Shown: piece by piece, positions 1,905 through 54,100 of the stretch
Position numbering within the stretch: position 1 is the first letter of the stretch
Layout: every line of letters starts with the position of its first letter
DNA from: Raillietiella orientalis
Lineage: Eukaryota
Assembly (NCBI GenBank): GCA_036172245.1
Contig: JAYWIR010000036.1
Location: 1,798,001-1,862,000, forward strand
Length of the DNA stretch: 64,000 nt
Direction: 5' to 3'
Translations under genes and position numbers: made by a program
Notes under the pieces: generated by a model
The model's database searches: none
What the model was told of the DNA's origin: nothing
Seen by the model: the letters and a program-made list of their open reading frames with translations, nothing else

Positions 1905-2427
1905 GCGATCCGCACGGTCGATCTTTTCAAGTTATGGGAAGTAACCCCGGAAGTACCATGCCCTATAAATCCGGGAAGGCTCCGGAGGAAAAGACTCCAT
2001 TCCTCTTACGCTCTGGGGACTCTCTGAAGAGAAGCCCGAAGAAACGCTTCCCATTTGCTCTGAAGGGTGCTTTCTGAAGGGAGCAGCGCTCTTCTTCACA
2101 CTCTGGAGAGGTATCAATCTACCAACTCCATAGTACGAGATGGAGTGTCCCTTCCGAGGAGGAAGGGGAGGAAGGGAAGGCTCCATTTTCACAACCGGAG
2201 GGGAACCCCGAACGGCTTCTTGCTTTCTGGAAGGGACCCCGAAGGGTCGACTTCCAATCTCAGCTAGTCAGCGGGGGCATCTGACTTCCATTAGTGCTGC
2301 ACCCGAAGCCCGTCCGTCAACCAGCGTCAAATCCGCGACGCACTTTCCGTTTGCTCCGGGCAGGATTCGAACCCGCGACGCTCGGTGCCGGGAGAGGTCG
2401 ATAGTGCCAGGAGCTCATCCGTCCCGC
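1905..2427 (-). mobile_element. tRNA-derived SINE-like element, copy A (short array)
   Basis: Minus strand has B-box GCGGGTTCGAATCC (~2363-2376), then the family body GGAAGTCGACCCTTCGGGGTCCCTTCC etc., homologous to the other seven copies. Confidence 0.75.
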
Positions 2428-2449
2428 AAAAGCTGGATGGGCAGTCCCG

Positions 2450-7329: not shown

Positions 7330-8075
7330 ATAAATTCGAACGTTTATTGTATGTATTAGTACCAGATGCAATGTGTGTTTCATTTTCCTGCCATTTGCAG
7401 CACTCAATAGATGGCGCTTTCTCAGTAATGATGAATTCCATTTTCGGGATTTTGATCGTTTGATACATACATATGCGTTTATAATTCGATGTTTATACAT
7501 TCATTTAATACATATTTATTATATGCAATAATATATGTACCTAATGAATACATATATTTATTTTTTATAATCTAAAATATGTATACTAATAATATGTAGT
7601 AATTATATGAATACATGTGCATGTTGAAATAAATTTACACACTAATATATATATAAATATCTATGCATAAATATATAAATATTACTATCTATATATAAAT
7701 AATCCATATATAAATTCTATATATAAATATATTAATATAAATACGTATATTAACATGCATAAGAAGCATATATTTTTATTTTTCCAGTCTTTACAATATA
7801 AACGTAATCTATCTAAACGTAAACATCTATTTCTTATAGCATTCAATATATATATTAATAATATACTGATTCATGTTATTAATTATATTAATAATGCGCA
7901 TGTTGATAAATTTGAATAAACAGGTGTTATGATAAGTCTGCATATTAATCTACATGTAATCTATACATATTAAGCATCTATATATTTTGATGATATACAA
8001 TCTCAGTATTAATCTGCCTATAAAAATGTATACATTTACGTGTATAATAAGCATCTATATTTATTTTTTTTTGAT
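7330..8075. repeat. AT-rich non-coding interspersed repeat, copy 1
   Basis: Abrupt AT-rich block sharing motifs (TATTAATCT(A/G)CATGTAA, ATAATAAGCA..TATTTATTTT, AAATCCCGAAA) with 16890-17880 and more weakly 56200-57125. Confidence 0.55.
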
Positions 8076-8900
8076 ATTCCAGGATTTTGGAGCAAACCTG
8101 AGCCGCAGCGAATTCCTCAGTGGAATCATCGAAGAAAAGAAAGTTTTCTAGACACTCGATGCCACCTGCGGAGCCACGTACCATCACTTATCCGTTTGGC
8201 AGCGCCTATCATCATTACTATTGCTACTGCCCTGGGGGCATTTTTATCCGGATCCTTTCTCGCCTCGTGCAAGGCGATCGCCTGCGCTCGGTGCCGCGGC
8301 TCGGCCAGTTTCATTCAGCGCCGCACGGCGATCCACGCCGATGGCTCATCTTACCACAAATCTCTTGGTCGGTCGGTGATTCCGAGAGCTGCGTGCCGCG
8401 TAGCCATGTGTTAACAGCTGTTCATGAGATCTACAGGTCGTGTCACGCAGCTAAGCTAGGAGAATGGCGTGATGCATCCACTGTTACCGAGGCTGCACAT
8501 TCCGGATTCTATTTTTAGCCGAGCCACGATTTCAGCCTCCATGACTTCCGTTTATTCGCACTCCATTGACTGCCATTGGGTTCCTTGCCTCGGCGCAGCC
8601 ATGCCCGGTTGATTCCAGGGTGCTGTGGACGTGTTGAAAATACCGGTGGGAGCACCAGGCAAACTCTGGCTCCGCAGCTGGGCTCAGACCTTTGCGTAGG
8701 GCCTGAAATGCTGCGGCAGCGGCAGCGACCAGATGAGTGCTCGAAAGGTGGCCGACTGGATTGGAAGAGCCGCTGATCGCTGGTGGATGGAGCGGAACCG
8801 ATTGGTTTGGCGAGTGACCGACGCCGGTTAGTCACCTCCTCTATCATGACATCTGGAGATTCAGATGTGGAACTTTTCGAGACTTCACCGTGGCTTCTCC
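8076..8900 (-). mobile_element. Decayed Tx1/L1-like ORF2 (end of APE, linker)
   Basis: KSWRLKSWLG (~WKLNxSLL) in ORF 8515..8952(-). Probably interrupted by SINE copy B. Confidence 0.35.
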
Positions 8901-8905
8901 GATGG

Positions 8906-9670
8906 GCCCGCGTCGGAGGCCGTGTGGTTGCGATGGTCTCCGCGCGTGGCACCTTGAGTCGTGGGTTCGAATACCTCGAAGGAATCGACGCAGTGCGTCG
9001 TGGGTTCGGAGTTCACCCCACAAGATGACGCTGGTTGGCCTACATTCATGCGGGTGCGGCATTGGTAGCCGTTAAAACCGGATGCCCCCGATGAGGACTG
9101 TGTCAAATGGGAGTCGACCTCCGGGTCCTTCCAGGAATCACGGAATACGAGCTCCCCTCCGGTTGTGAAGGAGCGGACCCCCATTCCGGGGGGACCCTCC
9201 GCGTCGTACGATGGAGTAGGTCTGTCTCCACTACCGCTCCAGAGAGTGCAGAGAAGCGAGCCGATCCCTTCGGGAAAGCTGTGTCCTGAATTTCGGAAGC
9301 GTCCCTTCTGGGTTCTCTTCAGAGGAGTAAAAACATGAGCGAATCCCTTACTGAGGAACCTCCGGAGAAGAAATGCCAGGATGGGATCCTTTCCGTGTTC
9401 CCTTCAGAGAAGAAAGAATGGAGCGGACCCCCGGGGGTCCTCCGGAGAGAATAAGGAAGGAGAATTCCCTTCTGGATTCTCCATCGGAGGTGATCTCAAT
9501 TTCCGGGGACCCCTCCCCAGGCGTGAGAGGAACGGACTCCGAGTCCTTCCTGGATTCATAGGGTGGACCCCTCCCGGGGTGCCCTCTATCTTGAAGAATT
9601 ACTCACCTTCGGGTGACGTCGAACCGTGTCGAAGAACTACGGAGACAGAAAAGAAGGATTTCCATCATCT
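8906..9670 (+). mobile_element. tRNA-derived SINE-like element, copy B (full length)
   Basis: Head GCCCGCGTCGGAGGCCGTGTGGTTGCG...GGTTCGAATACC (B-box 8964-8975), ~40-nt repeat array ~9110-9560, tail AGAAAAGAAGGATTTCCATCATCT shared with copy G. Confidence 0.85.
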
Positions 9671-16439: not shown

Positions 16440-16850
16440 CCTTTTTTCTGATTTTCTTGAAAGAGATTCCTCTCTTTTTCAAGAAGTGCCAAAAGACCGT
16501 CTGCCTCCCTAAGGGAAGAGGGGAGGGGGAAGGCTCTCACGAAGCTCACGAAGCACCGTCCACATCACCCGAGGGGGCGTGCGACTCTTCAGATCAGGGG
16601 GACCACTCCATGGGTCCAGGAAGGGCTCCGGAGGAAGGAGTCCGTTCCTCTCTCGCTCTTGAGAGGGGAGCCCCGGAGAGAATCATCGTCCTGGTTGTCT
16701 CCGTAGAGACCCTCCGTGTGTATGGGGGGGTCACTACTCGTTTCTTCCTTTCCGGAGGGAATCCGGAAAAGGGTCCGCTCCCTGTTACCTCTGGCGAGAA
16801 CCCCGAAGGAAGGCTTCCGGTGAATGGGGGAGGTCCTTCGGACGCACTGT
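16440..16850 (-). mobile_element. SINE-like element copy C (5'-truncated: array plus tail)
   Basis: CCTTCGGGGTTCTC-type units and a tail GGAGGCAGACGGTCTTTTGGCACTT similar to copies D, F and H. Confidence 0.7.
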
Positions 16851-16889: not shown

Positions 16890-17880
16890 CGTTCCCGCCG
16901 TCGCGTTATTAATTATGGCCTGACATCTGATGTCATCAAGGCAAATTACGTTTCCGTGCGACCGTGACGATTGAAATCCCGAAACCTCATAAAGATAAAT
17001 AAATATGCCCATTATATATATATACATACCAGTATATATACTTCTATACAGACTGATGTATAGAGTGATATGTATTGCAAAGGTCATAAACAGTAAATAC
17101 AGATGTTTGTTATGTGTGTGTATATATATGGAAATTTACTTTAACATATTTAGTAATATTTATTAGCATACTTATTATTAAATAGCTAATGATGCGTATT
17201 AATATATTATTAATACATGAGAGATTATAAAACATCAATATGTCTATGATGTATATTAATATACATAATAAATACATACTGAATATATATATATATGTGG
17301 AATATAAAAAATAAGAAATATAGGTAACAATTAAAAATAGTGGTTATGTAATAAACATATGCATCAATTTTTATCACCTTTAATATATATATTAATGATA
17401 TATTCGTCCTTCTCATTAATTGTATTAATAATAATAGAATGTTAATAAATACTGATGAATATGCATGTTAAAATGAATACGTATATTAATCTGCATGTAA
17501 ATACACACATCAACATACATAATAAGCACATGTATTTATTTTCCACAATTTTTAATATATATATATATTGAAGACTGTGAAACATAACTGTATCTTTCTT
17601 ATTATAGTATGTCTCTTACATATGCTAACAAATATATAAAATAGAGATTGTGAAAAATAAATACATGTGCTTATTATGTATGTTAATGTATGTATTTACA
17701 TGCAGATTAATATAGATACTTATTTTAGCACACATATTCATCAGTATTTATTAACATTCTATTATTATTAATACGACTAATGTGATGGACTAACACATCA
17801 TTAATATACACATTAAAGGTGATAAAAATGGATGTATGTATATGCTAGTATATGTAAGAAACATCCTTATTTATTCACCT
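16890..17880. repeat. AT-rich repeat copy 2 with ~190-bp imperfect inverted repeat
   Basis: 17356-17549 is approximately the reverse complement of 17647-17838. Confidence 0.75.
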
Positions 17881-22300: not shown

Positions 22301-22688
22301 GATCAAATGTTTCACGAATACACCCCAGATTTCATGAGCAGTCATGCATACCACTGAATAAAAAAATCGACCTCCGTCGGCATGGGAACCCCCAGAGGGC
22401 AAAGCGGACGTGTGCACGTATGCAACAATGTTGCCAACATCAAGCAGCTTTGTTTCGTACCGATGGAGGCAGACGTTTCATCTGCGGTGATGACTTTTAC
22501 TTAATAAGCTTAGCTTTGATGAGGAGAAAATTTTCGAAATCGTAAAAAAAAGGTGGGTTTGTCTCCATTTCTGGGTAGTACTTTGAGGAACTGACATTCA
22601 TATCAGTTAACGAAAGATACCCGAGGAGCTGGAGTAACGCTATGTAGTTGCAATGACGAAAAAAATAAATACTGACTTGACAAATGAT

Positions 22689-23582
22689 GGCCGATAGGAT
22701 GTAAAGAAAGAACAAATAAGAGAAACAAAATGTACTGGTGGTTCTGAACACATACGTCCCCATTTCATTTTTCCACGTAGTCATCATTTTTTTCGAAACA
22801 CTTTTGATACCGTGGAACCAACTTTTTGAAACCGTCCGATAAAATTCCGCCGCCTGGGAGTCCAGCCAGTTCAGCAGCACTGCAGTTTTCCACTCCTCCC
22901 TTTCCCCTTCGAGTGGTTGAGCCACTTCTCGAGGTGCAGGAAGACGTGGCAGCCACTGTGCAGGACTGTAAGGTGGATTATCAAAAAGTTCCCATTTGAA
23001 TTTCAGAATTATCTGGAATATGCAGACAGCATGTTTTGCCAAGGAGCGCGTTGTTGAGAAGGAGAGTAATTCCTGATCTAAGCATCCCACGTCGTCGGTT
23101 CTGCTGAATGGCACACGCCGCAGTTTTAAAAGTGTTCCACAGTAGACTTGCGAAGCGATAGTTGCTCCAGGCTCTATAAAGTCCACCAAAAGCACACTCC
23201 TGTGGTCCCACACACCGCTGTCGGCACATTCCAGATAATTCTGAAATTCAAATGGGAACTTTTTGATAATCCACCTTACAGTCCTGCACAGTGGCTGCCA
23301 CGTCTTCCTGCACCTCGAGAAGTGGCTCAACCACTCGAAGGGGAAAGGGAGGAGTGGAAAACTGCAGTGCTGCTGAACTGGCTGGACTCCCAGGCGGCGG
23401 AATTTTATCGGACGGTTTCAAAAAGTTGGTTCCACGGTATCAAAAGTGTTTCGAAAAAAATGATGACTACGTGGAAAAATGAAATGGGGACGTATGTGTT
23501 CAGAACCACCAATACATTTTGTTTCTCTTATTTGTTCTTTCTTTACGTCCTATCGGCCCTTACTTTTGAAATGCGCCTCGCA
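22689..23582. mobile_element. Mariner (Tc1/mariner) transposase fragment with inverted duplication of its 3' end
   Basis: Minus strand: WDHRSVLLVDFIEPGATI..VYCGTLLKLRR, RRGMLRSGITLL, FKWELFDNPPYSP, KKLVPRYQKCFEKNDDYVEK. The same C-terminus occurs on the plus strand and ends in TIR-like TTACTTTTGAAATGCGCCTCG. Confidence 0.9.
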
Positions 23583-24989: not shown

Positions 24990-27450
24990 GACTGTTGTCA
25001 GGGTGGGGAGCGGGAAAAGGCAAACTCCGACTCATCTGTCTGCGCGCGGGAGGGCCAAAAGTGGAAAGATTGAGCTTCACCGTGGCAACGGAGGCAGCCT
25101 GCCATCCTGGTGCTCACCTTGGCGAATTTCGGAGGCAAGAGCTCCCGCGACACAAGGTCGGCGGTATCAGCTGCCCCGAACGTGCTTTGAGCCAGCGCGG
25201 CAAAGATCCCTTCATTCCCATGCTCGGGTGTAGCGACAGCGCGTGACTTCGTTGCGTGGGTCATGCGGATCGGCGTCAAGCGCTCTTGGTGGGTCACCAG
25301 TAGATGGCGACAGTGGAAGTTTGCTGCTCCACACCTCGGCGCATAATTTCAATGAATCCATCCATGGCGCCTCGTGGTGGACTCGGGCTGTCGCCTCGCT
25401 CCACCGCGCGGGCCCGCGTTACGCAAGGGGAGAGTGTGTGTGTGTGTGGGGGGGCGCATCCTTCTTGAAACTACGCGGACCTCCGTGCACTCCTTCTGCC
25501 CCTGCGGGAGGGAGCTGCTTCGGCGAGAGGAGTCCGGGAGTAACCATGGCATCCGCAGGTAACGGGGCTGCTGTTTCCGCCGCCACCTTCCTCGCGCCAG
25601 ACTCATGAAGGGCTCCACCTCCGAGTTCCGGAGGGGTGAGAGTGCCTCCCGCTGGCTGCAGCCGCCGCGGAAGGACCACAAGCTCTCCTGGGGCGGCTAC
25701 AGCAGCATGCACGAGGACATCGGAAGGAGCACCCTCGAGGTGCTCCTTCCCATTCGCCACTCTCCCTCTCATCGCGGTGGCGAGCTCAGCGGAGCGTCCA
25801 GCATCCGCGAATCGGGAGTACGGGGTGCCCTTAGCCGGGATACGCGTCGCTTGCCGGCTTCTCACGCCGCGCAGTCTCCGAGAACCGATCGCCGCGCGGG
25901 ACCGAGGGACGGTTGCCAGGTGCTTTCGCCCTCTTCCTCGCTCTTCAGAGCCCGTCAGACCCCGGAGAAGCTTCCAGGGGATGCTTCTGCTCTGGAGAGG
26001 CGGTTCGCGGACCCTTTCGGTCCACGACTTCTCGTCCGATCCCCCTCTCGCGTCGTCCGTGCATCATCCTTTCCAGTTTTTTTCTTTTTTTTCTCGTCCT
26101 CAAGGAGTGCTGAAGAACTGTCCGCCTCCCTGAGAAGGGGGAGAGCTGAAAGAGAGCGCCCACGAAGCTACTCAACACCGTCCATGCCATCAGGGGTGCG
26201 TGTGGCTCTTTCAAGTTGTAGGTAGTGACTCCGGAGGGACCACCCTATGGAGTGCAGGAAGGCTCCAGAAAAGGGAGAAATGCTCCTAAGAGTGGAAGGA
26301 AATCCTCGTTCTGGTGGCCTCTGAAGGAAACCCTGACGGGAACCACTTCTTCCTTGTTCTTTCCAGAGGGACTCCCCGGTTTGTGGGAGCAGTGCGCTTC
26401 TTCACAATCTGGAGAGGTCTTAACTAACTCCATGGTGAGCGATAGAGGGTCTCTTCTCCCCACCGAGGAAAGGGGTCGCTTCCTTTTCGCAACCGGAGGG
26501 GAGCCCCCAAGGATTCCTTGATGTTCTGGAAGGATCCCAGAGGATCGACTTCCAATCCCAGCCCGTCAGCGGAGTCATCCGGCTTTCAGCAGTGACACCG
26601 CACCTGGATCCAACCAGCGCCGTCCTGCGGGGGGAACTCGGAACCCTCGACGCACCCCACGTTCTCGTCCCATCGAGCCTTCCTCCTGGGCAGAATTCGA
26701 ACCCGTGACGCACGGTGCAGCGCGCGCAGAGACCGTTGCAGCCACACGGTCGCCAACAGGGCTTTCAGAGGGAAGGGAAGATGTGGGTGGGGATTTCTTC
26801 GACATGGGAACGGAAGAGCGGAAGGCCGCAGCGACCTAGAACGAGCCGCACCTCCCTGAGTAATATAGACCTTGGAGCTTCCCCCGGCAACTTGGCCAGG
26901 TGGGGGCAGCAAAAGCAGCCTTGCGGAATTCTCCGTTGTCAAAATGTGGACGTCATCGAGGGTTGCAGGTCCTAGGGAGCAGCCGAAGAAGGGAAAATTA
27001 TAGGCTGCCGCCGATGTGCACCCACCTTCGTCAAGGAGGGGGCGTTTCTGGGAGTTCTATGGAAATCAGCACGTGAAAGGACCCCTCCATTCGAAAGGGC
27101 CTGCGGCGGATCAGAAAAGAGACTGGGCGGCTAAGGAGGAGCTCGCTGGAGCGAGGAGCGACACCTGGAAGGAGCTGCAAACCCCTCACGCGGCGGGCAT
27201 CTTCCAGGAAGGGGGTCTGGGATGGCTAAAGCAGTGTACGAAGCGCTGTTCTGGGCCCGCGCTCCGTGGAGCTGGCTGACACCTCCCTAGGGGGGTCGCC
27301 TCTTCAGAGAGTCAGGAAGCGCTCTTCTCCATTCGTGGAGCGCCCTCCAGGGAAAATGGAAAGCTTCCCTTGGAGCTTCTCTTCAGATGAGCTCTGCTAG
27401 ACCTGTGGAACCAGGGAAGTTTAGCTCCACATGCCCGACTCTGAACCAGG
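24990..27450 (+). mobile_element. Decayed Tx1/L1-like ORF2 interrupted by SINE copy D
   Basis: APE-like start (LICLRAGGPK, KVGGIS). After the SINE: EGREDVGGDFF, FWEFYG and AAKEELAGA (linker and RT start). Confidence 0.35.
26077..26762 (-). mobile_element. SINE-like element copy D (full length)
   Basis: Head GCCCTGTTGGCGACCGTGTGGCTGC...CACGGGTTCGAATTC, repeat array, tail GTTCTTCAGCACT followed by an A-rich tract. Confidence 0.85.
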
Positions 27451-37809: not shown

Positions 37810-38365
37810 GCACTCAAACGGCTAACGCTGTCCACGCCATCCAAAGGCGCGTGTTAGTTCTTCAAGTTAGAGGGACCACCCTATGAGTCTAGGAAGGTTC
37901 CCGAGGAAGGAGTCTGTTCCTCTTTTACTTTCGGTAGAGAACCCCGAAGGGAACCCTCACCCTGGTTGTCTCTGAAGTGACCTCCCGGAGTAGGTCATTC
38001 CTCATTTCTTACCCAGAGGGAACTCGCAAAGGAACCGCTCCCTGTTTACTTCTCTGAAGAGAACCCTGAAGGGAGCAGCGCACTCTTTGCACTCTGGAGA
38101 GGCGACCCCCGAGCGGGGTATCAACCAGCTCCACGGTACACGATGCACGGTCATCCCCCAAGGGAAGGGAGGGAACCATTTTTACAACCGGACGGGAACT
38201 TCGATCTCTCGAAGGACTCCTTGATTCCTGGAAGGATCCTGAAGGGTCAACTTCCGATCCTGGCCAGCCAACAGAGGCATCTGAGGATTCCGGCTTCCAT
38301 CGGTGCTGCATTTGAAGCCTGTAAACCGACCAGCGTCATCTTGTGGGGGAACTCGAAATCTACGA
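37810..38365 (-). mobile_element. SINE-like element copy E (lacks the first tRNA-like segment)
   Basis: Minus strand has CCCCACAAGATGACGCTGGT, GGAAGTTGACCCTTCAGGATCCTTCC, the array and AACTTGAAGAAC, as in the other copies. Confidence 0.8.
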
Positions 38366-38399
38366 AACACTCCCTCCATTTCTCTGAGTCGGCAGTAAA

Positions 38400-39180
38400 T
38401 GATGGAGTGCAACGCATTCCTCCATTTCCTTGGAACCATCCTCTTGACCGCAGGCGTATTGGAGCCCAGGATGGGTGCGTGGGTTTCGAGTTTGGTTGCA
38501 GAAAATGCCGTGATTGAGAAAAGCACACAATCTAAAAGATCCAGGTTCCTCACGCTACAGCAGCTGCATCCTACAGAGTGGATTGCAATACAACGACAAA
38601 AATCTTCAATGGGAGGCCAGAAGGCCAGCGGCACAGCCTCCCCAAGGAAAAGCGAGAGAGCAGCCATGCACCCATTATCCCTATCTCCATGGTTCACGAT
38701 CTTACGGCCTCTCAGTTGATTGCAACGCCGGCGTTTGTGGGTGGATGGGCAACGAATGTGGGTTACCTTGAACAATGCAGTTCCAAATTTCGAAAAGCCT
38801 CCGGTTTTTGACGCTTCTTATGGACTTTGCTGGTAGCCTGCGCAAGACGACCTTGGAAAGGTTCGTGTGGGGCGACACACATGCGGGAAATTTTTCAGAG
38901 CAAGTGGGGAGGATGGACCGCCGGAAGACAAGCTTTGCTCAGATCGGGAGAAGTTTGGAAGTTTCAAGGAGAAGAGCCGAGAGTTAAAGACGACGGAGTG
39001 GTTGTTGACGTCATCACGAGGAAAAAATTTTCCTTCCTTGGTAAGAGCTGCTGCACAAAGCGTGGCAATCCTTGGCGCCAAGAAAAAACCCTGAGCTGAG
39101 TCGGACTGAGCAGATCCTCGAGCTGTTTTCTTACGGAGAGGAAGGGATTGAGAAATAATAAAAAAAAAAAAAGTAAATAA
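38400..39180 (+). mobile_element. Possible late-ORF2 LINE remnant ending in an A tract
   Basis: LHFLGTIL (~KYLG), SRFLTL (~W..R.LSL), A-rich tract 39152-39180. Confidence 0.3.
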
Positions 39181-39199
39181 AGGGAGGTTCCAAGATGGG

Positions 39200-41470
39200 G
39201 TCTATCTGAGAGTTGCAGACCACGTATTTATCCACGCGGAATCTGCATCCCACTAGAGCAGCTGCCAGGAGAAGAACGGAAGCTGATCATTCATATCGTC
39301 GTTGTGGCCTGTCGAACGAAACGTCGCCTCATGTGACAAATCGCTGCACGAGGCAGTCCTGTCTGTGCACAGTCGGGTGTGACGCGATTGCGGATGAGAT
39401 CAGAACAGCGGCAGTAGGACTAGCACGATGGAAACCGATGTGTCAGCGAGCTAGAGAGACCCTGGTTTTGGTTCAACTCTGAGGCCGCATCTGGTGTTGC
39501 AGAAGGGAAACAGGATGGTAATGCTGGACGTATCTTGCCCCTTTGGGATTAAGGAAGAAGACTTCAGCATCGCCAGTAATCAGAAGCATCCAAATACAGT
39601 AGTACCTCGGTACTCGTCGGTAATTCTTTCCGGAACCCGTGAAAAGTACCGAAACTGAAGAGTACCGAACGAGTTCCTTTCTAGGCTTCTTTGTATCATT
39701 TTTAACCATTTTAGGACCATGATTAATGCTTAAAATGTACTGAAAGCACAAAACAAGGAAAGACTGGGTGAAAGACGGGTGACACTCTGTGGAAGTGTTT
39801 GGCACTGGTCACGAGCTATCATAACACAAAAGTGTTCACTTGTTTCATCATGAGAGTAGGATGTCGAGTTCCGAGCATGAGCCGAGTATCGAAACATTTT
39901 TTTTCTCTCCAAAATGCGACGAGTACTGAGTTTGATGAGTTCTGACACTGTCGAGTACCGAAGTATCAGGGTGCCAAGATGCTCTCAAGCAGCAATTCGA
40001 GAAAGTGGCAGATGCAAACATTTGATTGTTCTGGAGGAGCATTCCGTTGTGGCGGAAGGGCATCAACAGACCAGCATGTGTCACATTTATTACTCCAAAG
40101 AGAAATCTGTGCAAACTGATTTTGCAGTTTAATCTTATCAGGGCGGCTCCATCCGCTTTCTTCACTTAAGCGCGTCCAAAGAGGAGGAAGAGGAGGTCGC
40201 GGGGGCAGGTGGTAGTTTCCTCAAAAAATTGCTGGCCTTCACCGTAATATCCCGGAAACGAAGCAATGTTGTCCTTAATTGGGTGTCCTACGGATGTGTG
40301 TCGATACAATGAGACGGTTCATGGCTGTCTCATGCATCCTCTACACTCGCGACAGCTATTGGGCGAGTCGACTGCGACGATTACCAGATGACACGCTGAA
40401 ACAGCGACAACCTCACGAAGAGGTATTCTAGGAAGTGTTCCCGGAGTGCCTTTGCCCCCTGCAACACTTATTACAACGACCTTTGGCAGTGGCGATGCAA
40501 AGCACGGAAAAGTGGTCGACCCTAGCCGCCACATCCCTCGCTGCAGCGCTGTCTGCCCTGAGGGCAAGCGACGACAGCGTCCAGCCGGCGAGGTGGGAGT
40601 TCAATACACCACTGTGAGAAGGACGAAACTCCTTGGCGGCTGGAATATGCGCGAGTTGGTGGATGATGCCACTCTGCGTGCCCCAGAGACGAGGCTCCCT
40701 TGGTGGAGTCAACTTCTGCGTGTTGCTCCCGAAGAACTTGTGGTCCCTCCTCAATGTCTGGGAGCTTCCGCGTTCCCGCTCTCCAGGAAACAGGTTGTGC
40801 TACTCTTTCTGCATTGAGGATTCCAGTGCAATGAGCGCCAGCACCTCGTTGGGGATGCATCACCGAGCTGTTCCGCGTGCGGGTCTGTGGGGGTCACTCC
40901 CTCACCTGCTTTCGAACTGCAGTGCCCTCCAGGAACTGTGGCGGAGGCTGCAGTCAGCGCTCCTGCACCAAGAGGACATAGCTCGCGACCTGATAAGACG
41001 ATTCTTCGCACCTGGAAGACTTTCGACGGGCATGGAGATCGCAACGATGGGCTGCCACGGTCACGGCAAACCATGTGCTGGTGACGATCAGGCAGCGAAA
41101 GGAGGTCACCAGGATGGCAGACGCCTGCATCAGGAGGGTTGCAAGGTGGCCTCACCTGCAAGAGGAGGTGAGGGAGGAGATCGCCGGAATCCAGCGCCGG
41201 TTCTGGAATGAAGGAACAACGGACACCAGTAACCCTTGTCCCCAGCCTCCCTTTATTTACTTTTTTTTTAATCATTTCTCAATCCCTTCCTCTCCGTACC
41301 TTTCCCAGTTTGCATATTTTCATTCTGGGTTATACGGAGCGGACCCAAAGACCTTTGTCCCATCCCCTTGGATTTCCTTCTTTCTTGTTCTTCTCCCTCT
41401 CGCTCCGGGCTTTCGGATATTCCGACCTTCAGGGTGTTGGCAAACCCTTCCCCGTGAACTTCTTTTGTCG
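39200..41470 (+). mobile_element. Tx1-like ORF2, RT to C-terminus and 3' UTR
   Basis: CSACG/SLPHLLSNC (CCHC across a frameshift, ~40868-40920), RVARWPHLQEEVREE, then a T-rich 3' UTR from ~41250. Confidence 0.6.
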
Positions 41471-42399: not shown

Positions 42400-43120
42400 T
42401 GAAACACCCCCTCTGAGGGGACCCATTATTGCGTTTCATGGAGACGGTTGATATCCTTCCCCCTTTGGGAGTTGCCTCTCCAGAGTGCAAGAAGCGCTCT
42501 GTTCCCCTCGGGGAGCATCCCTTCAGAGAAATTGCGAAGCGTTCTTTCGGGGTTCTCTTCAGAGGAGGAGGAAACAAGAGCGGTTCCCTTGCGGGTTTCT
42601 CCGGAGAAGAAATTTGAGGAGCGGATCCTCTCCGGGTTCCCTTCGGAGAGCACAAGGAGGGGGTTCCCGCCATGGTTCCCTTAGGATACAACCAGAGCGA
42701 GGGTTCCTCCCTTCCAAGAGTAAGAGTAAGATGGGCTCCTTCCTATGGAACCCTCCTGGATTCAACCTCTGGAGGATTCAGGGAGCTTCCTGACGTTCTT
42801 TCCCACTTTTCTCATGCCACCCCTATGCTTTCGCTCTAAGAGGCCTCTTGCAGACCGGCAGATGATACAGAACGAGTCTGGAGGCTGCGAGAGGCATCAG
42901 GATGACCCCTGCTCCACACGAATTCCGCAAATCATTGGTGAAAATGGATGCTGAAAACATACCTGCTCCAACTACGACGCCGTCCCCTCCTGGTCTCTCC
43001 GGGGTTACCCTTTATAGCTTGAAGAGTTATAGGGGTGGTGTGAACAATGTTAAAGAGCTCTGTGAGCGTCGCCTAAAGGAGCAACGGTTCTTCAGCACTC
43101 GGCTAACGAAAAGGAAGAAA
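42400..43120 (+). mobile_element. SINE-like element copy F (5'-truncated, interrupted by a 222-bp insert)
   Basis: Array 42440-42765. The tail resumes at ~42989 (CTCTCCGGGGTTACC...CTTGAAGAG...GTTCTTCAGCACT). Confidence 0.75.
42767..42988 (+). repeat. 222-bp direct repeat, copy 1 (matches 46671-46892)
   Basis: CTCTGGAGGATTCAGGG...ACGCCGTCCCCT reads as identical in both places. Confidence 0.95.
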
Positions 43121-44440: not shown

Positions 44441-45219
44441 AGATGATGGAAATCCTTCTTTTCTATTTTGTTGTTTTTGCAGCCCTTTGACGCTGTTCCA
44501 AGCCACTCGAGGGTGTGTGTAATTCTTCAAGATAGGGGATACCTCTGGAGGGGTCCGCCCTATGAAACCAGGAAGGGTTGGGAGTCCGTTCCTCTCACGC
44601 CTGGGGAAGGATTCCCGGAATGGAGATCACCTCCACGCTGGTTGTCTCCGATGGAGAATCCAGAAGGGAATTCTCCTTCCTTATTCTCTCCGGAGGACCC
44701 TTGGGGGTCCGCTCCATTTTTTCTTCTTCGAAAGGATCCGATCCTAGAATTTCTTCTCTGGAGGTTCCTCCGTAAGGGATTCGCTCCTGTTTTTACTCCT
44801 CTGAAAAGAACCTCGAAGGGACGCTTCCGAAATTCAGAAGGGCGCTGCTTCCCCGAAGGGAGCGGCACGCTTCTCTGCACTCTGGAGAGGTAGTGGCGAC
44901 ACATCTACTTCATCAGGACGACTCGGAGGGTCCTCCCGGAATGATGAGTCCGCTCCTCCACAGTCGGAGGGGAACTCCCAGTCCTTGGTTCCTGGAAGGA
45001 CCCGAAGGTCGACTCCCATTGTCCCTTCCCTCATCGGGGGCATCCGGTTTGAACCGCTACCAGTGCCGCAACCGAATGAATGTGGGCCAACCAGCTCCAT
45101 CTTGCAGGAGGAACTTGAACGTGCGACGCACTGCATCGATTCATTTCGGAGAATTCGAACCCGCGAAGCTTGGTGGTGCCAAGCGCGGAAGTCCTAACCA
45201 CAAAGCCCCCGACGCGGGC
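44441..45219 (-). mobile_element. SINE-like element copy G (full length)
   Basis: Head GCCCGCGTCGGGGGCTTTGTGGTTAGG...GCGGGTTCGAATTC. Closely resembles copy B throughout, including the tail. Confidence 0.85.
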
Positions 45220-46670
45220 TGACCACGAATCTGATTTTGCCAGAGCTTTCGGACTGCTTGTTTGAACGCAACTGGAACAGAGGAGGTTATCGGACTGATG
45301 GATGCATGTCAAGGAAGCTGACACTTTGGGAGCTTGAAGATTGACTTCGCGCTTCTTGTGAGTCAGTGTCAGGCTTTGCTCTTCGTGCACCTTGACCACT
45401 CCGGTCGGTGGTGTGTTCTGATCGCGGGAGATGCAGGACCTCCCCTGCAAGTCTGATCCGGTGAGTATGCCCTTGTGCACACCTCAATAACCCCTTCCCA
45501 CTTTAGGATCTGATTCAGACGACTATCAACTCATGCTTTCGAGATGCTCCACAAGAATCCGTCCCAAGCTCCAGAGATTTCCGGTTTTACTCTCTGTATC
45601 TTCTTCCTATCCAAGTGACCAAGCCAGCTCCAGTATTTCAGCTCTAGAAAACCGACTGTGAAATGCTCTGTTGGCATTCACATGCTCCTGGCTCTGGGTG
45701 CAGTCTACTAAAGTCCTTGTCACGGATCATCAGTTGAAAGTGAAGGTTTCTATCAAAGTTTCGTGGCTTTGTTCCTTCGGATTCTCCCAAGGTGTTTTAG
45801 GCGTCTATTGCACACCAACCCTTCGTCTATGGAATGGTAGTCGACGTACATGTCAAGTGGTCTACCACTATGCTATAAAGCTCCATAAACGGCAAAGTGC
45901 CGTTTATGGCAGTAAGTACTCTTTGCTCTCTTTCCTTTCCTTGAACTCTTGCTTGGAATCGATAGACCATTGGTTCCGCGGACGAAGCATCTTCTTCATA
46001 GACCGAAGACTTTTTCGCTAGAATGATTGCTTGCTTACTTGAGGAAGCAGTTCCTAAGGGAAACAGATTCCGCAAATCATCATACCGGCTTTCCCCATTT
46101 GCATGTACCTTCTGTCCTTGCATTCCTGAGGTTCGAAACGGATTTTACTCACTCTCTGCTTGTCCTCTCTTGAGAAAGTTGCTTTCAGTGGGGACCATCG
46201 GTCACAACGTACATGGATCGAATGCTGGATGGTTTGTGTACGCGAGGAGGAATTACGGATTGGAAGCAACTGAGAGCTCACCGCGGACCTACCCTTCACC
46301 GACGCCTTCTGAAGCACCTCTTTCGATCCTATAAGCTCCATCCACCCTCCAGTAGTGTATTCCGATCGAACTACTGGTCAGAAAGATGTCTGAAAACTCT
46401 GAAGACCACAGGAACTCTGGAACAATTCTTTTCCTCTCCTCACAAACCTCGATACTTCCGCCAGGGAAAATGGGGATTATCACCTGAACTTATGAGAACC
46501 GGGTTGATCCGTAGCCTGAAGAATCACTAGCTAATGTCTGAGAGACACTCTCTGCTCCGTTTCACCTGTGGGTCACACATATAAGAACCTCTTTCCGTTT
46601 GGAGAACCAGGAAGAGAGCGGAAACATCTGTGAAAGCGCAATCAAAACGGACTTCAAGGCTATTTTGACG

Positions 46671-49229
46671 CTCTGGAGGATTCAGGGAGCTTCCTGACGT
46701 TCTTTCCCACTTTTCTCATGCCACCCCTATGCTTTCGCTCTAAGAGGCCTCTTGCAGACCGGCAGATGATACAGAACGAGTCTGGAGGCTGCGAGAGGCA
46801 TCAGGATGACCCCTGCTCCACACGAATTCCGCAAATCATTGGTGAAAATGGATGCTGAAAACATACCTGCTCCAACTACGACGCCGTCCCCTTCTACTTT
46901 ATTGTAGGGGGAAGTCATCAACTAGGAGGTGTAATGAAACTTCTTTGCCTTCTAGCCTCCGCCTCTTAGAGCTGTTCAGAGGATGCCCCTGCCGCTTAAT
47001 AGCTATCAGACTGCAGAGAGCATGTTGGCTGCTTCCAATGAAGGGATATCTTCATGAATTAATCTACAGCGATCATTCCAGGAGCAAATGCAGAATTCAC
47101 CGCTCCTCTTCAGTACCGATGGATGGAGGCCCTTCTAGACTCTTATTCCTCCAGGACTGGATCTCCATGGAACAGAGATGGAGCACTAGCATGCATCTGC
47201 TTCAGTAGTTCTCACTCTAGGTGGAAACCATGTACCAGATGCATGTTAGAGTTGAAGATGTGTTGCTGAATCTAAGATCTGTATCACCAGTCTGACTTCG
47301 ACCTGCGTTCAGTAAATGTGATCTGGAGTCACGATTCCCGGACCGCGGTCGTGGCTGAGCAAGAATCGTCACAGCGGCGGTGGTCTGTGATTATAAAGTG
47401 TCTGCTGCCTCGATGCAGCAAACGTCTTCTCTGAAGTGTTTTGGAAGCAGAAGAGCCAAAGCTCTTCTGCTTCCAAAATCCTACCCTCCTTACGCCCTCT
47501 TCTCTTTCACTTCCTCCCTCAATGAATCCTGCGCTGATTCCTTGACAGCTGGATTCTTTCTTCTCTTTTGATCCTCTCTCTTGAATTGGCGTGTGTTGGC
47601 TGCTGCGAGAGGTGAGACCGATTGTGCTGGACCATGTAGATCCGTTACTTAATCGCTCTGCCGAGACTTGTGACTGGGCTGCGCCATATCCCTCACTACG
47701 GCACAGCACCCGTTTCTTTAAAAGTCATCTCGAAGGAGCTCATAAAATGTTCTTTACTTCCAAACCACCTTCGACCTATAAACTGCACGCTCATTGGAAA
47801 CCCATTAATGACCAAGTGCTGCTGTGCCGAGCTCTCGGGTCCTAGCCGCCGTGGTGGAAGACCCGTTCATCTTTTCCCAATCTCATGTCCCAATTAGCTA
47901 TGAGCGGTGGCTGGCAAACTTCTTCCAGCAGTGCCTTTTAAAAAGAAAAGGTCACAAATTTCGAGCAGAGCTCAGTGTCAGGAAAATCAGAAGATTTGCC
48001 TTCTTTACATTCGGGGCTCCTTTCCTCTCCACCTTTACATTAGCTGGAAGCAAAATTTGAAGGGAATGCCTAGCAAAGAAGAACATCAATGAGATTGCCC
48101 CACGATCTCGCACAGCAACTGACCCTGAAAGACCTTGTGAGCAGGAGAAATGTTCGAGCATCAGCAGCCTGGATGCCATATGAAAGGTGCAAAAAAAATT
48201 TGCTTTTGCGGCCATCGCCTGATAAACCGGGGAAAACCTCTATTCTTTCACCCCTCATAAAGATGACTCATTCCATTTTCTTCTTCCCCCATCAGCAATC
48301 TGCTGCTCCTCGATATTTTTGGGAGATCATAGGAAGCCAAAGGAAACCATTTATCCCTCTATGAAGAAGGTCTGGAAGCTCACGGCAAGTACGGAAACCT
48401 GACACTCCTGGAGGAATATCCACAGCATGAAGCTTCGTAGGTGCCGAACCATCAATGTGTAAACGATGGATCCTTGTTATTAGAACTGCTTCTTCATTGA
48501 ATTTCCATTACAAGTGCCTAAGGAAGACTTGCATTCCATGATGAAAATCCATGTGCCTCATATCTTGAAGCGGTGCAGCAGAAACTTTCATCTGTTCACT
48601 GCGCGACACAACGCGATCCAGAATTTGATCAGGATGTCCGCAGTGGGTGAAGCAAAGTGGTCCCTAGCGTAGACCAACCAGAGAGCTCTAGGCAAGGACT
48701 CCCCCTTTTGACCGTACTATAGAAAGGAAATCGAACGATACTGCTGGACAACTGCCACCCGTTCGAGGAAGGGAAAGAGGTGTTCAGCACAGCCAGGAAG
48801 AACAAGTTGGAAAAGTACAATGAAACAGCCTCCAGCTAAGCAGAGGGGTGAAGCAATGCAATGTGTGTCCTCTCATCGCTGGCTCACTAGGAGTCGGAGA
48901 CCTAGGTAACGAGGAAGTGCTGCATGATCTTATAGTTCCTAAAAAACACTCGGAGAGGATGAGGCACTGGATGGTGGCTCCGTGCATCCGGTGCTCCAGG
49001 GACATCTAAGTAGCCCACGTCACGGGAGGAGCAACACGAGATCGAAACTCAGATACGGCCGGTAAACCCCAGCTGTCAGCTCCTGCGGGACAGAGGACAA
49101 GCAGCTGAGGGAGCAGCAGATTAAAGGGCGACAAGCGCCCCAGATGAACCGGTGAGGGATTTTGGAAGAATGCGAAGAGTCCTTTCTGTAATGCGATGTT
49201 AAATTGTAAATTTGAGTAATAAAAAAAAA
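46671..49229 (+). mobile_element. NeSL/Utopia-like (RLE-type) non-LTR retrotransposon remnant: RT, CCHC, RLE, 3' A tail
   Basis: PHILKRC..FTARHNAIQNLI, ILLDNCHPFEEGKEVFSTARKNKLEKY, IAGSLG..NEEVL..CIRCSRDI*VAHVTG, then AATAAAAAAAAA at ~49218-49229. Confidence 0.8.
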
Positions 49230-49239
49230 CTCTTCCCGG

Positions 49240-50052
49240 TTCTTCTGTTTTCGCTGCTTTCGTTTTTATTTTGGTTCTCAAGGGTTGCTGAAGAACCACT
49301 TAGGGGAGGCTCACAATGCTCTTTAGCACTGTCCATGCCAGCCGAGGGTGCGTGGAACTCTTGAAGTTGTAGAGAGTGACCCCGGAGTCACCACCCAATG
49401 AATCCAGGAGGGGCTCCGGAGGGAGGGGTCCTTTCCTCTCACGCTTGGGAGGGAACTTCGAAGGGAACTTCTCCATTCTCTCTGGAGAGTCCCCCGGAAG
49501 GGGCCACTCCTCATTTCTTCTCCAGAGGGAACGTGGAAAGCATCCGCTCCTGAATTCTTTCTCCGGAGGGATCCTTAGCAAGGAAACTGCTCCTTGTTTG
49601 CTCCCCTGAAGAGAACTCGAAAGGGATACCTCGAAATTTCTCTGGAGGGTCACTCCCCGATGGGAGCAGCTCTCTTCTCCATACTCTGAAGAGGTATAGA
49701 CCCACCTGTTCCATGGTAAGAGATGGAGGGGTCCCCCCTGAGGAAGGGGTTATGACTCCATTTGCACAACCAGAGGGGAACCCCAAAGAACTCCTTGATT
49801 CCTGGGAGAAGCGCGGAAGGTCAACTTCGAGCCCCGGCCAGTCAGCGGGGGCATCCGGAGATTTCTGACTTCCAGCTATGCTGCACCCAACGCCTGTGGT
49901 GGCCAACTAGCACCATCTTGATGCGATGAAGGGACTCGAAACTGAGGACGCACCCCCCGTTCTTGGCATCGACTCTTCTCCGGGAGGGATTCGAACCCGC
50001 AACACTTGTTGCCACGCGAGGAGACTGCAACCGTGCAGCCGCCAATGCGGGC
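49240..50052 (-). mobile_element. SINE-like element copy H (full length)
   Basis: Head GCCCGCATTGGCGGCTGCACGGTTGC...GCGGGTTCGAATCCC, ~11 repeat units 49401-49830, tail GTTCTTCAGCA followed by an A-rich tract. Confidence 0.85.
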
Positions 50053-50069
50053 ATCGCGGACGTGGACGC

Positions 50070-50870
50070 TCACATTCCAGAGACATCATCCACTACCTTT
50101 TCGATTACCAATCAAAGTATCTCACGCGATTCCGAAAAGACTGCACGAAAAGACTCTGAAGGAGACTCGGGTCGCAGTATGAAAAGTACAAGCATGTTAT
50201 GAAATGGGTGCGGCCTCACACCAGTGTACATCAGTATGTACTGCAGAAGGCAATCTCTTGCTGCAGTGTGCACTGAAGCAAGAGGTGCAGAGCAGGAAAA
50301 AGAGAGCTCCAGGTTGCTGAACCGTTCTTTCATAGAAGTTGTTGACAACTCTTCAAAGATCCTCTTTAGATCCTGAAGGCAAAAGTGACCTTATTGCCTC
50401 AAAACATCTGCCTCTGCAGCGGAGCGCTTCTTGAAAGTGTCCTGTACTTTTGCCGACCGGGATGCCTCATACCTAGAAGACAGTGGCGACTGCGTAAGCG
50501 GAGACATTCGCATGACGAAGAACCATTTCAGCACTCCACTTTATGTTCTGCTTCATGCTCGGTGCTGTGGGTCTTTCTACAGCCTAGAATCGAGGAAGGC
50601 AACTGCTTGACTAGGAGAGAGATTCTGAAGATGGCGTCGCGCTTTGCAAACTGACATCACCATGCTGGCAACATCTGCATCACTAGGAAGTGTAATGTAA
50701 TCCTTCCAGAAGATGTGTAGTCTGATGCTTCTGAATATTAACGTGCTCTTCACAGAACACCCATGATCAGAAGCATGGGAATGCTTCACAAAACATTCCA
50801 TGCACACTCAATCACAAATACGTTCATGGAGTACTTTAACTACCACTCGGTGGTGATGGCGTGGCGTTCA
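50070..50870 (-). mobile_element. RLE-type element, post-RT region
   Basis: ITLPSDADVASMV..RRHLQNLSPSQAVAFL resembles the NeSL/Utopia post-thumb segment. Confidence 0.45.
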
Positions 50871-51199: not shown

Positions 51200-54100
51200 C
51201 TAGCAGAGTGGATGTATAGTGACGAACATATATCTGGGCAAGTGGTTGACTTTTGCTGAAGGAAGAGTTTGTTCTTGATATTAACATTAATGGGAGACTG
51301 TGTTACTTGTCTGTGTGACCTTCCTACTACTCTATCACCAAAATTAATTTCTTGATGGTGGAGTACAGTATTAAAAAGAAATAGAAAACAGAGCTGAAGT
51401 TCCAAGTTCTTTGTATACTAGAGGAATTGAATGGAAATAAACATTTGGTACCCAGATACCGATAAGTTAGATAAAATTGGTGTTATCAGCACCATAATGT
51501 GAAAAGATCTTATGTGAAAATCTTATCCCCACAAATTAATATACCCGGCTTTAAATCAGTAACGAAGGGGATGATTTTCCTAACAAATATGTGGTAAAGA
51601 GTAATGCGCATGGAAGTAGCTATCATGAGGTTTCCATATAATCTCAAATTTTCAAGTTACTGCATAAATGAAAAGCTGTGTGATATGATGCTTCGATTAG
51701 TGAGACCTAGGAAACGAAAATGTTATAATGGACGGAACAAAATAGGAATCTGGCAAAAGTTTGCCTAAAATGTTTTTTTTGTAGGCATTTCTTCATAGAC
51801 AGTGTAAATCAGAGTCTGCTCAGGGATGGATAAAAAGCTGCAGCATTTTGGTGGAGCTGAGGTAGCATAATAATTAGCTGTTTAATTTAGCATAAATGAA
51901 AGAATACAATAGGTGGGATTCCCATGTTTTGTGATTTCAACTTTGATGCCAGAGGTAAAAGTATCATGAAACACTTTGGAAAATACTGGTAAAAGAAGAA
52001 GGGGAAGCAATTAGATGCATCAGGGGTTTTTGCTTTGAGGATAAGGCATGAATAGAAGATAGGAAACTGATTGCATAGGAAGTATGATCTTGAAATGAAG
52101 ATAAGCTACCTAAAAGAGAACCACATGACCTTCATGAAAGGTTAGGATTAATACAAAGGTTTGAGATCTTGGTTCTAAGTTAGGGATCTGCAGGTAGTGG
52201 AACATTTACAGTACAGTCTGTTTGATTGAAATACGACTTGATTCGAGTTTAGATCGGCAAAGACATGTGGTTTTTTAACTTTAGGTACCAATGAGCTTCT
52301 TTGGTTTTGTTTCAGCAAGAAAGGATCAGAGAGTGCAAATATGTCTAATTTAAAGGTGGACTTTATGGAATGATACCGAAGTTGTTAGAAGTAAGATGGT
52401 GTTCTTGAAGTTAGGCTATGCATCTATGGTACTTAAGCATAAAATCTTGCGCAGGATAAAGTAGATGAAGGACCAAATACGGGAGGTATAAAATTCATGA
52501 GGCCTTTAAGGGGGTCTTCTGAAATTTGTAAAAGTGAAGAATATCATGTGCTAATGTAAGGTGTTGGTTGATGGCAAGTTAGTGAGACTGTTGAGGGTAA
52601 TGGTAGGGATGTGAATTGTCCTTTCGATGAACTGGAAAATCATGAGTCAGTTGTGATTAATATTTATTTGTTATTTGAGTGGAACGCCATACAGAGTATA
52701 GATAAGAAAATGAGTGACATAGTTATGTTCTGCAGCTCAGATGATTCCTTATGAGGAGTATATGATTACTATTTTAATGAAAGAGGTGGTTAATGTCAAA
52801 AGGTATGCGCAAGTCTGTGGAAAAGCTGACTTTGAGGAATTGGTTTATATTACATGTAATTTTGTGGTTTCCCTATTTTGTTATGATTAATTGATGTATA
52901 GATGCTGAGAGATTATGTTGTTTCTTTCTAATGGAACAAGGATGATTACTGTTAAATAAGAGAATCAGTCCATGAGAATATTATGATTGGATATCAAAGG
53001 AGCATTCCTTGGTATTGGGATATGCAGTGAATGTGGTAGTTGGCTTCATTTGATTTTCGATTTACAAAATCCATGTTTTATGTACTTATTATGATATAAT
53101 TCATACAAAAAACATTCAGATTGAAGAAATAATAGAAAGAATAATAGCAATCACAACTAAACAGTTTTATGATTGGTTAAAGTGTTGATGGTTTCAGTTC
53201 TTGAACATGTGAGAATGGAGAAAGATGAAATTAGTGAGGGTAGGAATGTTTGTTTGCCATGGGTAATATCATGAGGACAGGTAATAGTAAATAAAGGCAT
53301 ATTAAAAAGGAGGATAATGAATAGAGTAGAATGAAGACTCCTAATTCATCAAGGATGGATCAACTGATGGTGTTAACAATAAGAACATTATCTTGGTTGG
53401 ATCATTGTGGATATGACAAGGCCATACTCAGAATTCAAATTTCCTGAATTTCAATTCCGATATGAATTAAATATTTATCAAGTTGCAACAGAGAGATAAA
53501 ATTGGGTTAATCAAAATTCTGTCATTCAAACAAAAATCAGTGTTTGGAAACATAAAACTAGTTCAATAAAAATTAAAAAAAGAGAAACTGTGCCGCCCTT
53601 TCTTTGGTCACTGTAAACAGAGGGCAACAGAAACATTCAGTACCCCAATTTATGATTCATCCTAAAGAAGAGGTGCCACCAACAGGTATCACCTTCCCTC
53701 TGGGAAATGTCAGCATTGTCTGATGAGAAGGCAAAAGGATAATCTGTGCCATTAAGACTTTACAAGGTTGGTGGTGCCAACAGGACAGAAATAAGGAACC
53801 TTGGGCTATCTCTTAAGTGGCTGAGAACAGTTGATGACAATTGCTGCAAATGTTCATGTCTGGATAATCCACTAGCCAATTGGTGTGCTAGATTTAATCC
53901 ATCCAAAACAATTGTGCAATCACACACAACTTGGAAAATGGCCAAGTCTGCTTAAAAAACTGCTACATGCAAAATTAGGTAAAAATTCTGGCTGAATTCA
54001 ATTCGAAAGAAAGCTTTCTTCATTGCTGATACTCTTTAATTGCATACAGTGAATTGGTTTTACTTCCATGAAATTATTTTGAGCTGTACAGCCACTTTGA

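Follow-up and report, generated by a model that had tools for sequence, protein, structure and literature searches.

In the sections of the SINEBase paper drawn on here, a short interspersed element (SINE) is an interspersed sequence of <1 kb that either matches a tRNA, 5S RNA or 7SL RNA at 60% identity or more across 60 nucleotides (nt) or more, or has been shown to be transcribed by RNA polymerase III (Pol III); boxes A and B of the promoter are taken as an indication only, the 175 families span 75–662 nt, and CHRS is described as a 'quasioligomer' SINE in which a degenerate motif is repeated >10 times (PMC3531059). Here we describe a repeat family in a 64,000-nt stretch of Raillietiella orientalis DNA (contig JAYWIR010000036.1, positions 1,798,001 to 1,862,000 of the forward strand; hereafter the window, i.e., the whole stretch that was analysed), in which an original prediction, made from the letters alone, had placed at 49401–49830 a tRNA-headed SINE-like RNA built from an array of ~40-nt UUCG-type hairpins. 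Based on our analysis, this element is probably one member of an old, inactive, non-coding family of SINE-like retroposons of Pol III type, whose body is quasi-oligomeric and palindromic.

Like tRNA-derived SINEs, as far as those sections of the SINEBase paper describe them, the window family consists of non-coding, interspersed sequences of <1 kb in which a Pol III promoter motif lies internally at the 5' end, the body has no known source, the tail is variable and of simple sequence, and internal deletions and duplications occur such as are found in subfamilies; unlike them, it has a head without a tRNA match, and neither target duplications nor a partner long interspersed element (LINE) were seen in the window. 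The closest precedent for its build is CHRS (CHR-2), which we could compare by its description in the same sections only: both are quasi-oligomeric, with 13–14 related units in the window family; the unit is ~40 nt here vs. ~20 nt in CHRS, however, and each of ours is palindromic with arms of its own. A full-text literature search, which had Dfam, Repbase and SINEBank outside its scope, returned no description of a tRNA-headed SINE made of ~40-nt hairpin units. The original prediction did not recognise the architecture in a described SINE; the quasi-oligomer CHRS is nevertheless a precedent for it.

Two systems that are not SINEs of this kind also share parts of the design. SVA, a non-autonomous hominoid retroposon of ~2 kb, carries a GC-rich region of variable number of tandem repeats (VNTR) type with ~35–50-bp units in variable number; it is thought to be transcribed by RNA polymerase II and includes Alu-like and retroviral-derived modules, with no tRNA-like or B-box head. 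The window family resembles SVA in its internal VNTR-type units, the number of which varies between copies, and differs from it in being shorter and in having a B-box head. The TMERs of murid gammaherpesvirus 68, each of which combines a tRNA-like Pol III head with one or two hairpins of pre-miRNA size in the same transcript, likewise place hairpins after a head, and are the nearest model for the idea that such an RNA is cut into small RNAs. Unlike the TMERs, the window family is a dispersed and decayed eukaryotic repeat with 13–14 hairpins, whose consensus stems (~7–14 bp) fall short of pre-miRNA size (stems of ~20 bp or more).

Copies of the family and their heads

All eight loci given by the original prediction were recovered by blastn with 49230–50070, by self-blastn of the window and by an nhmmer profile built from the copies, which were aligned with MAFFT (L-INS-i); the self-blastn and the profile also identified a ninth locus, a short fragment at 27259–27391 on the plus strand. 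The nine loci lie on both strands, measure 133–835 nt each and have unrelated flanks, i.e., they are short, interspersed and non-tandem in the SINEBase sense, and the eight copies plus the fragment cover 5177 of the 64000 nt (~8% of the window), a density that hints at abundance in the genome without amounting to a copy number. Identity among the copies was 67–80%. The closest pair, B and G, is 80% identical over 799 alignment columns and again has unrelated flanks; because the similarity ends sharply at both ends, we regard the two as independent insertions, and the self-blastn found no homology past the ends of the element. A full copy (~0.77–0.83 kb) consists of a head, a spacer, an array of units (u1 to u13), and a 3' region with a tail. 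Truncation of the 5' end is seen in C, E and F, at a different point in each (385, 71 and 255 of the profile, respectively), while their 3' parts are shared. The features are as follows, beginning with copy H, which contains the predicted span.

49230–50064, minus strand: copy H, full length, containing the span of the original prediction (blastn, nhmmer, alignment; BLAST homology to 50052)
~49968–50064, minus strand: head of copy H (alignment)
49987–50000, minus strand: B-box of copy H (pattern search)
~49830–49967, minus strand: non-unit spacer of copy H (alignment)
49334–49829, minus strand: array of copy H, u1–u13 of ~40 nt each, enclosing 49401–49830 of the original prediction (alignment)
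49230–49333, minus strand: 3' region and purine-rich tail of copy H (alignment)
49221–49229, minus strand: run of nine T (sense) directly after the tail of copy H, a candidate Pol III terminator or mere flank
1905–2433, minus strand: copy A, with head, B-box (2363–2376), u1–u6, u11 and u12; u7–u10 deleted and 3' end truncated (blastn, nhmmer, alignment)
8895–9670, plus strand: copy B, full length, 14 units including an extra u8b (homology to G from 8906; relaxed ARAGORN cloverleaf at 8895–8984)
16440–16830, minus strand: copy C, 5'-truncated, profile positions 385–700, purine-rich tail (nhmmer, alignment)
26077–26772, minus strand: copy D, the sole head called by ARAGORN at 90% (26681–26772), u6–u8 missing, A-rich tail (ARAGORN, nhmmer, alignment)
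27259–27391, plus strand: ninth locus, a fragment with u4–u6, profile positions 298–418 (self-blastn, nhmmer)
37810–38384, minus strand: copy E, lacking its 5' end to a point shortly past the B-box, profile positions 71–673 (nhmmer)
42400–43110, plus strand: copy F, 5'-truncated, split by an unrelated 225-nt insertion (42767–42991), eight T after the tail (nhmmer, alignment)
44441–45232, minus strand: copy G, full length, 14 units (nhmmer, alignment; BLAST homology to 45219)

The 225-nt sequence that splits copy F occurs twice in the window (42767–42991 and 46671–46895), the two occurrences being 99.6–100% identical with unrelated flanks. It has the look of a small and young mobile element from a different family, in which no clear target duplication or terminal repeats were seen.

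The head is ~90 nt long, and its sole strongly conserved feature is a motif of the Pol III B-box or T-loop type, GGGTTCGAAT. This decamer is exact in all five 5'-complete copies (A, B, D, G and H). Extended to the 14-mer GCGGGTTCGAATCC and with up to two mismatches allowed, it had five matches in the window, one in each of these copies, while shuffled sequences had a mean of 0.59 and none of 100 reached five. For an A-box, only a partial likeness was noted by eye in the alignment; the indication given by boxes A and B in SINEBase is counted here by way of the B-box. Relaxed ARAGORN searches folded the heads of B, D and G into cloverleaves of the same kind (90–92 nt, with a long variable arm) that start 9–13 nt upstream of the BLAST homology. 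As judged from sequence, then, the 5'-complete copies begin with a Pol III B-box head, and the derivation of this head from a tRNA is plausible only: of the claim that five copies keep a tRNA-like head with a B-box, the B-box was found in every one, whereas the likeness to a tRNA draws on just that box and the relaxed ARAGORN calls.

A tRNA gene or pseudogene was considered and rejected, since default ARAGORN on the window, Rfam on three heads and RNAalifold on five show no cloverleaf and each copy has ~700 nt of additional body. A blastn search of the head of copy D against E. coli genomes gave no match. Relatives of the family were sought elsewhere as well, with no matches in a scan of a genome-contig collection and none in a metagenome scan with a pattern of the B-box plus downstream sequence. 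An 18-mer scan yielded 43 metagenome loci; the family profile matched ~100 nt or less in or next to the seed in four of these (best E-value 1.2e-05) and nothing in the rest, and since the profile matches were confined to the vicinity of the seed we took all 43 as chance.

Unit array and self-complementarity

The units were delimited by eye on the L-INS-i alignment. There are 13 in a full copy and 14 in B and G, which have the extra u8b; hence the array of degenerate ~40-nt tandem units that had been predicted is present, but with more units than the stated maximum of ~11. Each unit (34–45 nt) has a hairpin part of 21–34 nt followed by an A/G-rich linker (10–15 nt), and is an imperfect palindrome with outer arms of GGAG/CTCC type, inner arms of CCC/GGG type and often a 4-nt loop. 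This common pattern agrees with the sense consensus proposed originally, and the example given for it at 2229–2255 (minus strand) proved to be u1 of copy A. Unit content also varies as predicted, with 6–13 scored units per copy, and copy A is shorter because u7–u10 are missing.

The units of the array are related to one another: when the 14 unit consensuses were compared pairwise, their mean identity was 0.395, whereas 40 shuffled bodies divided at the same places gave 0.230 ± 0.020 (maximum 0.261). Of 77 matches to a unit profile in the window, 54 were within the nine loci in sense orientation, 6 within them in antisense and 17 elsewhere; as the latter were all weak (E-values >2), the unit has no separate satellite occurrence in the window. 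The spacer of ~140 nt between head and array is not built of units and has hairpins of its own. Periodicity in self-matches was weak and varied between copies, the best offsets being 28–82 nt, with 38–42 or 79–82 prominent in E, F, G and H, and Tandem Repeats Finder did not detect the array because the units are too diverged.

Two other explanations for such an array were rejected. A protein-coding repeat does not fit unit lengths of 34–45 nt, which are not multiples of three, nor the many indels between copies. The other, a CRISPR array, was raised by the only sub-threshold Rfam match, to CRISPR-DR58 (RF01371) at 49553–49587 on the plus strand (28.3 bits, E-value 0.0032, gathering score 38), which has a similar ~37-nt unit, short GC stem and UUCG-like loop. 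However, this match is antisense to the element, the units abut without unique spacers, they are only ~40% alike and lie inside a dispersed repeat, and the window looks eukaryotic; we regard the match as a chance likeness of short GC palindromes.

All 14 unit consensuses fold as single hairpins with stems of ~7–14 bp in 21–34 nt, nine of them at p ≤ 0.05 against mononucleotide shuffles, and the 81 unit instances have a mean fold z of −1.68, a value that the by-eye boundaries favour. A test free of such boundaries took greedy, non-overlapping local folds (span 44) and compared them with dinucleotide shuffles (n = 200). In the sense orientation the 511-nt consensus body formed 11 hairpins with a total of −180.6 kcal/mol, vs. 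−139.7 ± 13.5 kcal/mol for the shuffles (z −3.0; 0 of 200 reached it), and in antisense z was −1.7, with 12 of 200 shuffles reaching the observed value. The potential for hairpins is thus only modestly above chance. The unit consensuses also lean to the sense strand (−162.5 vs. −147.2 kcal/mol in antisense; 10 of 14 more stable in sense), and on that strand of the nine loci CTTCGG occurs 10 times and its complement CCGAAG not at all, the counts for the plus strand of the rest of the window being 14 and 24, respectively. A C(UUCG)G loop was formed in only 5 of 75 single-hairpin folds and any 4-nt loop in 31 of 75, so that 'UUCG-type' fits the ancestral unit better than the present copies, for which the label is overstated.

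The original prediction further held that stems differ between units and still pair. This was supported by a half-swap test, in which chimeras were made within each copy by combining 5' and 3' halves taken from different units, and their folding was compared with that of the native halves. With the consensus units, native hairpins gave −11.6 kcal/mol and chimeras −8.5 kcal/mol (permutation z −4.5; 0 of 2000 reached it); pooled over the copies, z was −6.4, and with a midpoint split five of the eight copies individually had p < 0.05 (copies D and F, at 0.08 each, were among the exceptions). As native halves beat chimeras, the complementarity of each unit goes beyond the GGAG/CTCC and CCC/GGG core that all share and is partly its own. 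Several units have private complementary extensions: in u5 the inner stem reaches 9 bp, in u12 the outer arms reach 6 bp, and in u1 and u8b the inner arms reach 5–6 bp. A count over the five inner pairs in a sequence-only MAFFT alignment of 80 hairpin segments pointed modestly the same way, with 58.3% of cells paired vs. 53.7 ± 1.6 (2 of 500 reached it), 48 two-sided changes vs. 30.3 ± 6.8 (0 of 500) and a covariation score of 0.267 vs. 0.189, all figures that are inflated by the non-independence of rows from orthologous units.

Between copies the picture is different. Swapping halves of the same unit between copies revealed no overall compensation (pooled z −0.55 with a midpoint split and −1.42 with a loop split), and this held for 12 of 13 units. 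Only u9 stood out (p 0.004–0.0075); since B and G have an extra unit and the alignment pairs their u8b with the u9 of the others, the unit compared there may be non-orthologous. The lack of compensation is as expected of dead copies. Units that were self-complementary in the ancestor, in copies that decay uncompensated, form the pattern that a dead retroposon family derived from a structured or palindromic master would show.

Probable retroposon origin and its alternatives

Purine-rich tails that differ in length and sequence, i.e., simple tails of the SINE kind, are present in H, D, C and F, and are followed by nine T in H and by eight T in F; B and G end in another, A-rich stretch. Terminal inverted or direct repeats, as in a miniature inverted-repeat transposable element (MITE), were found in none of B, G, H and D, where local alignments of the terminal 60 nt scored 10–14, within the range of shuffled sequences (mean 10.6–11.9, maximum 17–21). 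No open reading frame (ORF) of at least 90 amino acids lying in the copies, among the 141 of this length scanned in the window, had a Pfam match. The predicted SINE-like nature of the dispersed family is partly supported, by its non-coding nature, 5' B-box, tandem body of ~40-nt palindromes, purine-rich tails and 5'-truncated copies. Pol III transcription, retroposition and any role of the hairpins are steps that we infer. Master copies would have been transcribed from the internal promoter, and the transcripts copied into new sites by the reverse transcriptase of a LINE, giving the 5'-truncated copies. A single palindromic unit of ~40 nt, duplicated in tandem, would have given rise to the body; its units would have diverged in the master lineage, with each keeping or regaining its own self-complementarity, and the inserted copies would then have decayed neutrally.

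A series of results weighs against this interpretation. Target-site duplications were absent, in that no direct repeat of at least 8 nt was found in a sensible position around any of the eight copies, although at a divergence of 20–33% such duplications may have eroded and their absence is weak evidence either way. Nor was a LINE or reverse transcriptase found among the 141 ORFs of the window by comparison with Pfam. The element, at 0.77–0.83 kb, is above the 75–662 nt spanned by the families in the SINEBase sections used here. As for the head, ARAGORN at default settings found no tRNA in the window; Rfam models of tRNA, 5S and 7SL had no match at E ≤ 10 to the heads of H, D and B; and RNAalifold on the five heads gave no cloverleaf, with an unfavourable covariation term. 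When ARAGORN was relaxed to 90% the head of D was one of only 2 calls in the whole window, and at 80% all five heads were called among 57 calls in the window. The hairpins gave contrary results, too. The unit instances have no strand preference (−655 kcal/mol in sense and −687 kcal/mol in antisense, with 35 of 81 more stable in sense), and single copies had local-fold z values of −1.5 to −3.2, or +0.45 for D, with sense and antisense totals about equal. GC-rich shuffles already form ~8 hairpins of −9 kcal/mol or lower vs. the 11 of the consensus body. The reported span of copy H folds globally at the level of shuffles (z −0.78 in sense, −0.89 in antisense), its half-swap result was not significant (p 0.26), RNAalifold on sequence-based sub-alignments found no consensus structure for 6 of the 14 units, and in the pair count sliding the partners by −1 gave 63.3% paired, more than in the chosen register.

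Some of these results are what would be expected if the element were a dispersed repeat carrying an ordinary, VNTR-like minisatellite, its palindromy being a DNA-level accident of the founding unit and its hairpins having neither been selected nor had a role as RNA; this account, under which the element may still be a SINE, we regard as possible but tentative. Folding of the 81 unit instances is as good on one strand as on the other, with similar numbers of G-U pairs (57 in sense, 50 in antisense), yet the consensus body, with its z of −3.0 in sense vs. −1.7 in antisense, and the 10:0 ratio of CTTCGG to CCGAAG are not strand-neutral. The chimeras still reach −8.5 kcal/mol, which indicates that a large part of the pairing is due to the common GGAG/CTCC and CCC/GGG core, but none of 2000 permutations of the consensus units matched the native halves, and neutral divergence from one palindrome would break pairs such as those in the private extensions of u5, u12, u1 and u8b. 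The shuffle-level folding of the reported span on both strands, the VNTR-like variation of unit number between copies, and the 12 of 13 units without compensation between copies fit a minisatellite.

It is unlikely that the family is not retroposed at all, and represents instead a DNA element of the non-autonomous kind, or part of some larger composite repeat that spread by a different route, with a B-box-like motif that descends from an unrelated sequence. Such an origin would agree with an element length of >700 nt, with head searches that found no match toward the tRNA identity set out in SINEBase, and with the lack of target-site duplications, of a clean poly(A) and of a partner LINE in the window. 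Against it, however, speak the absence of terminal inverted or direct repeats from the four copies compared and the self-blastn homology, which stays within the element; the 5' boundary is identical in four to five copies with unrelated flanks, and the 5'-truncated copies have common 3' ends and variable purine-rich tails.

Within the preferred interpretation, that of a decayed SINE-like family, we speculate that a Pol III master transcript of ~0.8 kb may have carried 13–14 phased UUCG-type hairpins, each self-complementary by itself, kept by selection as a multivalent platform, for example as mimics of the stem-loop read by a LINE reverse transcriptase of the stringent type or as an array for a host RNA-binding protein; this is distinctly unlikely. 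Very improbable is the functional role suggested originally, a Pol III transcript acting as a multi-hairpin, multivalent protein scaffold or as a source of ~40-nt small RNAs: the B-box is conserved, the hairpins are phased with unit-specific complementarity, the consensus favours the sense strand, and B, E, F1 and H have no internal run of four T on that strand, but the copies differ by 20–33% and decay uncompensated, so the loci in the window are not conserved genes, the avoidance of T runs is not significant (6 in the sense strands of the eight copies, ~4,800 nt, vs. ~9 expected by a base-composition estimate), Rfam at gathering thresholds had no match in the window, and stems of 7–14 bp, far below Dicer-type precursors or canonical pre-miRNAs, make a Dicer-type route unlikely.

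The surrounding window and significance of the family

At curated thresholds, no Pfam family was found in the 141 ORFs of at least 90 amino acids across the whole 64-kb window. Among ORFs of at least 60 amino acids there was no clear coding signature in the GC content of third codon positions (GC3); the largest differences between GC3 and the GC content of second positions, 0.35 and 0.27, belong to ORFs of 60–62 amino acids with unremarkable GC3. GC content varies from 35 to 66% along the window and the observed/expected ratio of CpG from 0.54 to 0.98. We read the window as gene-poor, repeat-rich eukaryotic DNA that is entirely intergenic or repeat.

Several further repeats were noted there. 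An inverted repeat at 22677–23570 has 354-nt arms that are 97% complementary around a 186-nt spacer, and an ORF that spans the repeat matches the mariner Transposase_1 domain below threshold (E-value 5e-4; 20.3 bits vs. a cutoff of 24); this may be a foldback or rearranged mariner remnant. A second inverted repeat is AT-rich (17351–17843), with 87% complementarity between its arms of 211 nt, and is related to a 150-nt stretch ~9.5 kb upstream (7814–7959); the two make up a second small repeat family, possibly MITE-like or foldback. Outside the SINE-like copies there is also a 56-nt inverted match, 91% identical, between 41246–41298 and 39132–39187. Finally, an AT-rich block at 51200–53600 (GC 30–37%) is strongly depleted of C on the plus strand, with a GC skew of up to 0.44 and no tandem repeat or ORF, and resembles an old element that underwent strand-asymmetric C-to-T hypermutation.

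As it stands, the family, though somewhat unusual in structure, is a decayed one without sign of present function, in which we saw nothing beyond an ordinary dead retroposon, and its practical bearing is that of a repeat family to be masked and annotated in the source genome. If young genomic copies were to confirm it, however, the family would stand out among SINEs by its length and by a body made entirely from the amplification of a palindromic 40-mer, and would provide a natural test of whether RNA structure, through stability or recognition by the partner reverse transcriptase, or slippage alone shapes the bodies of SINEs. Were the hairpins indeed a platform kept by selection, the amplification of a protein-binding hairpin would have produced a SINE body of a new class.

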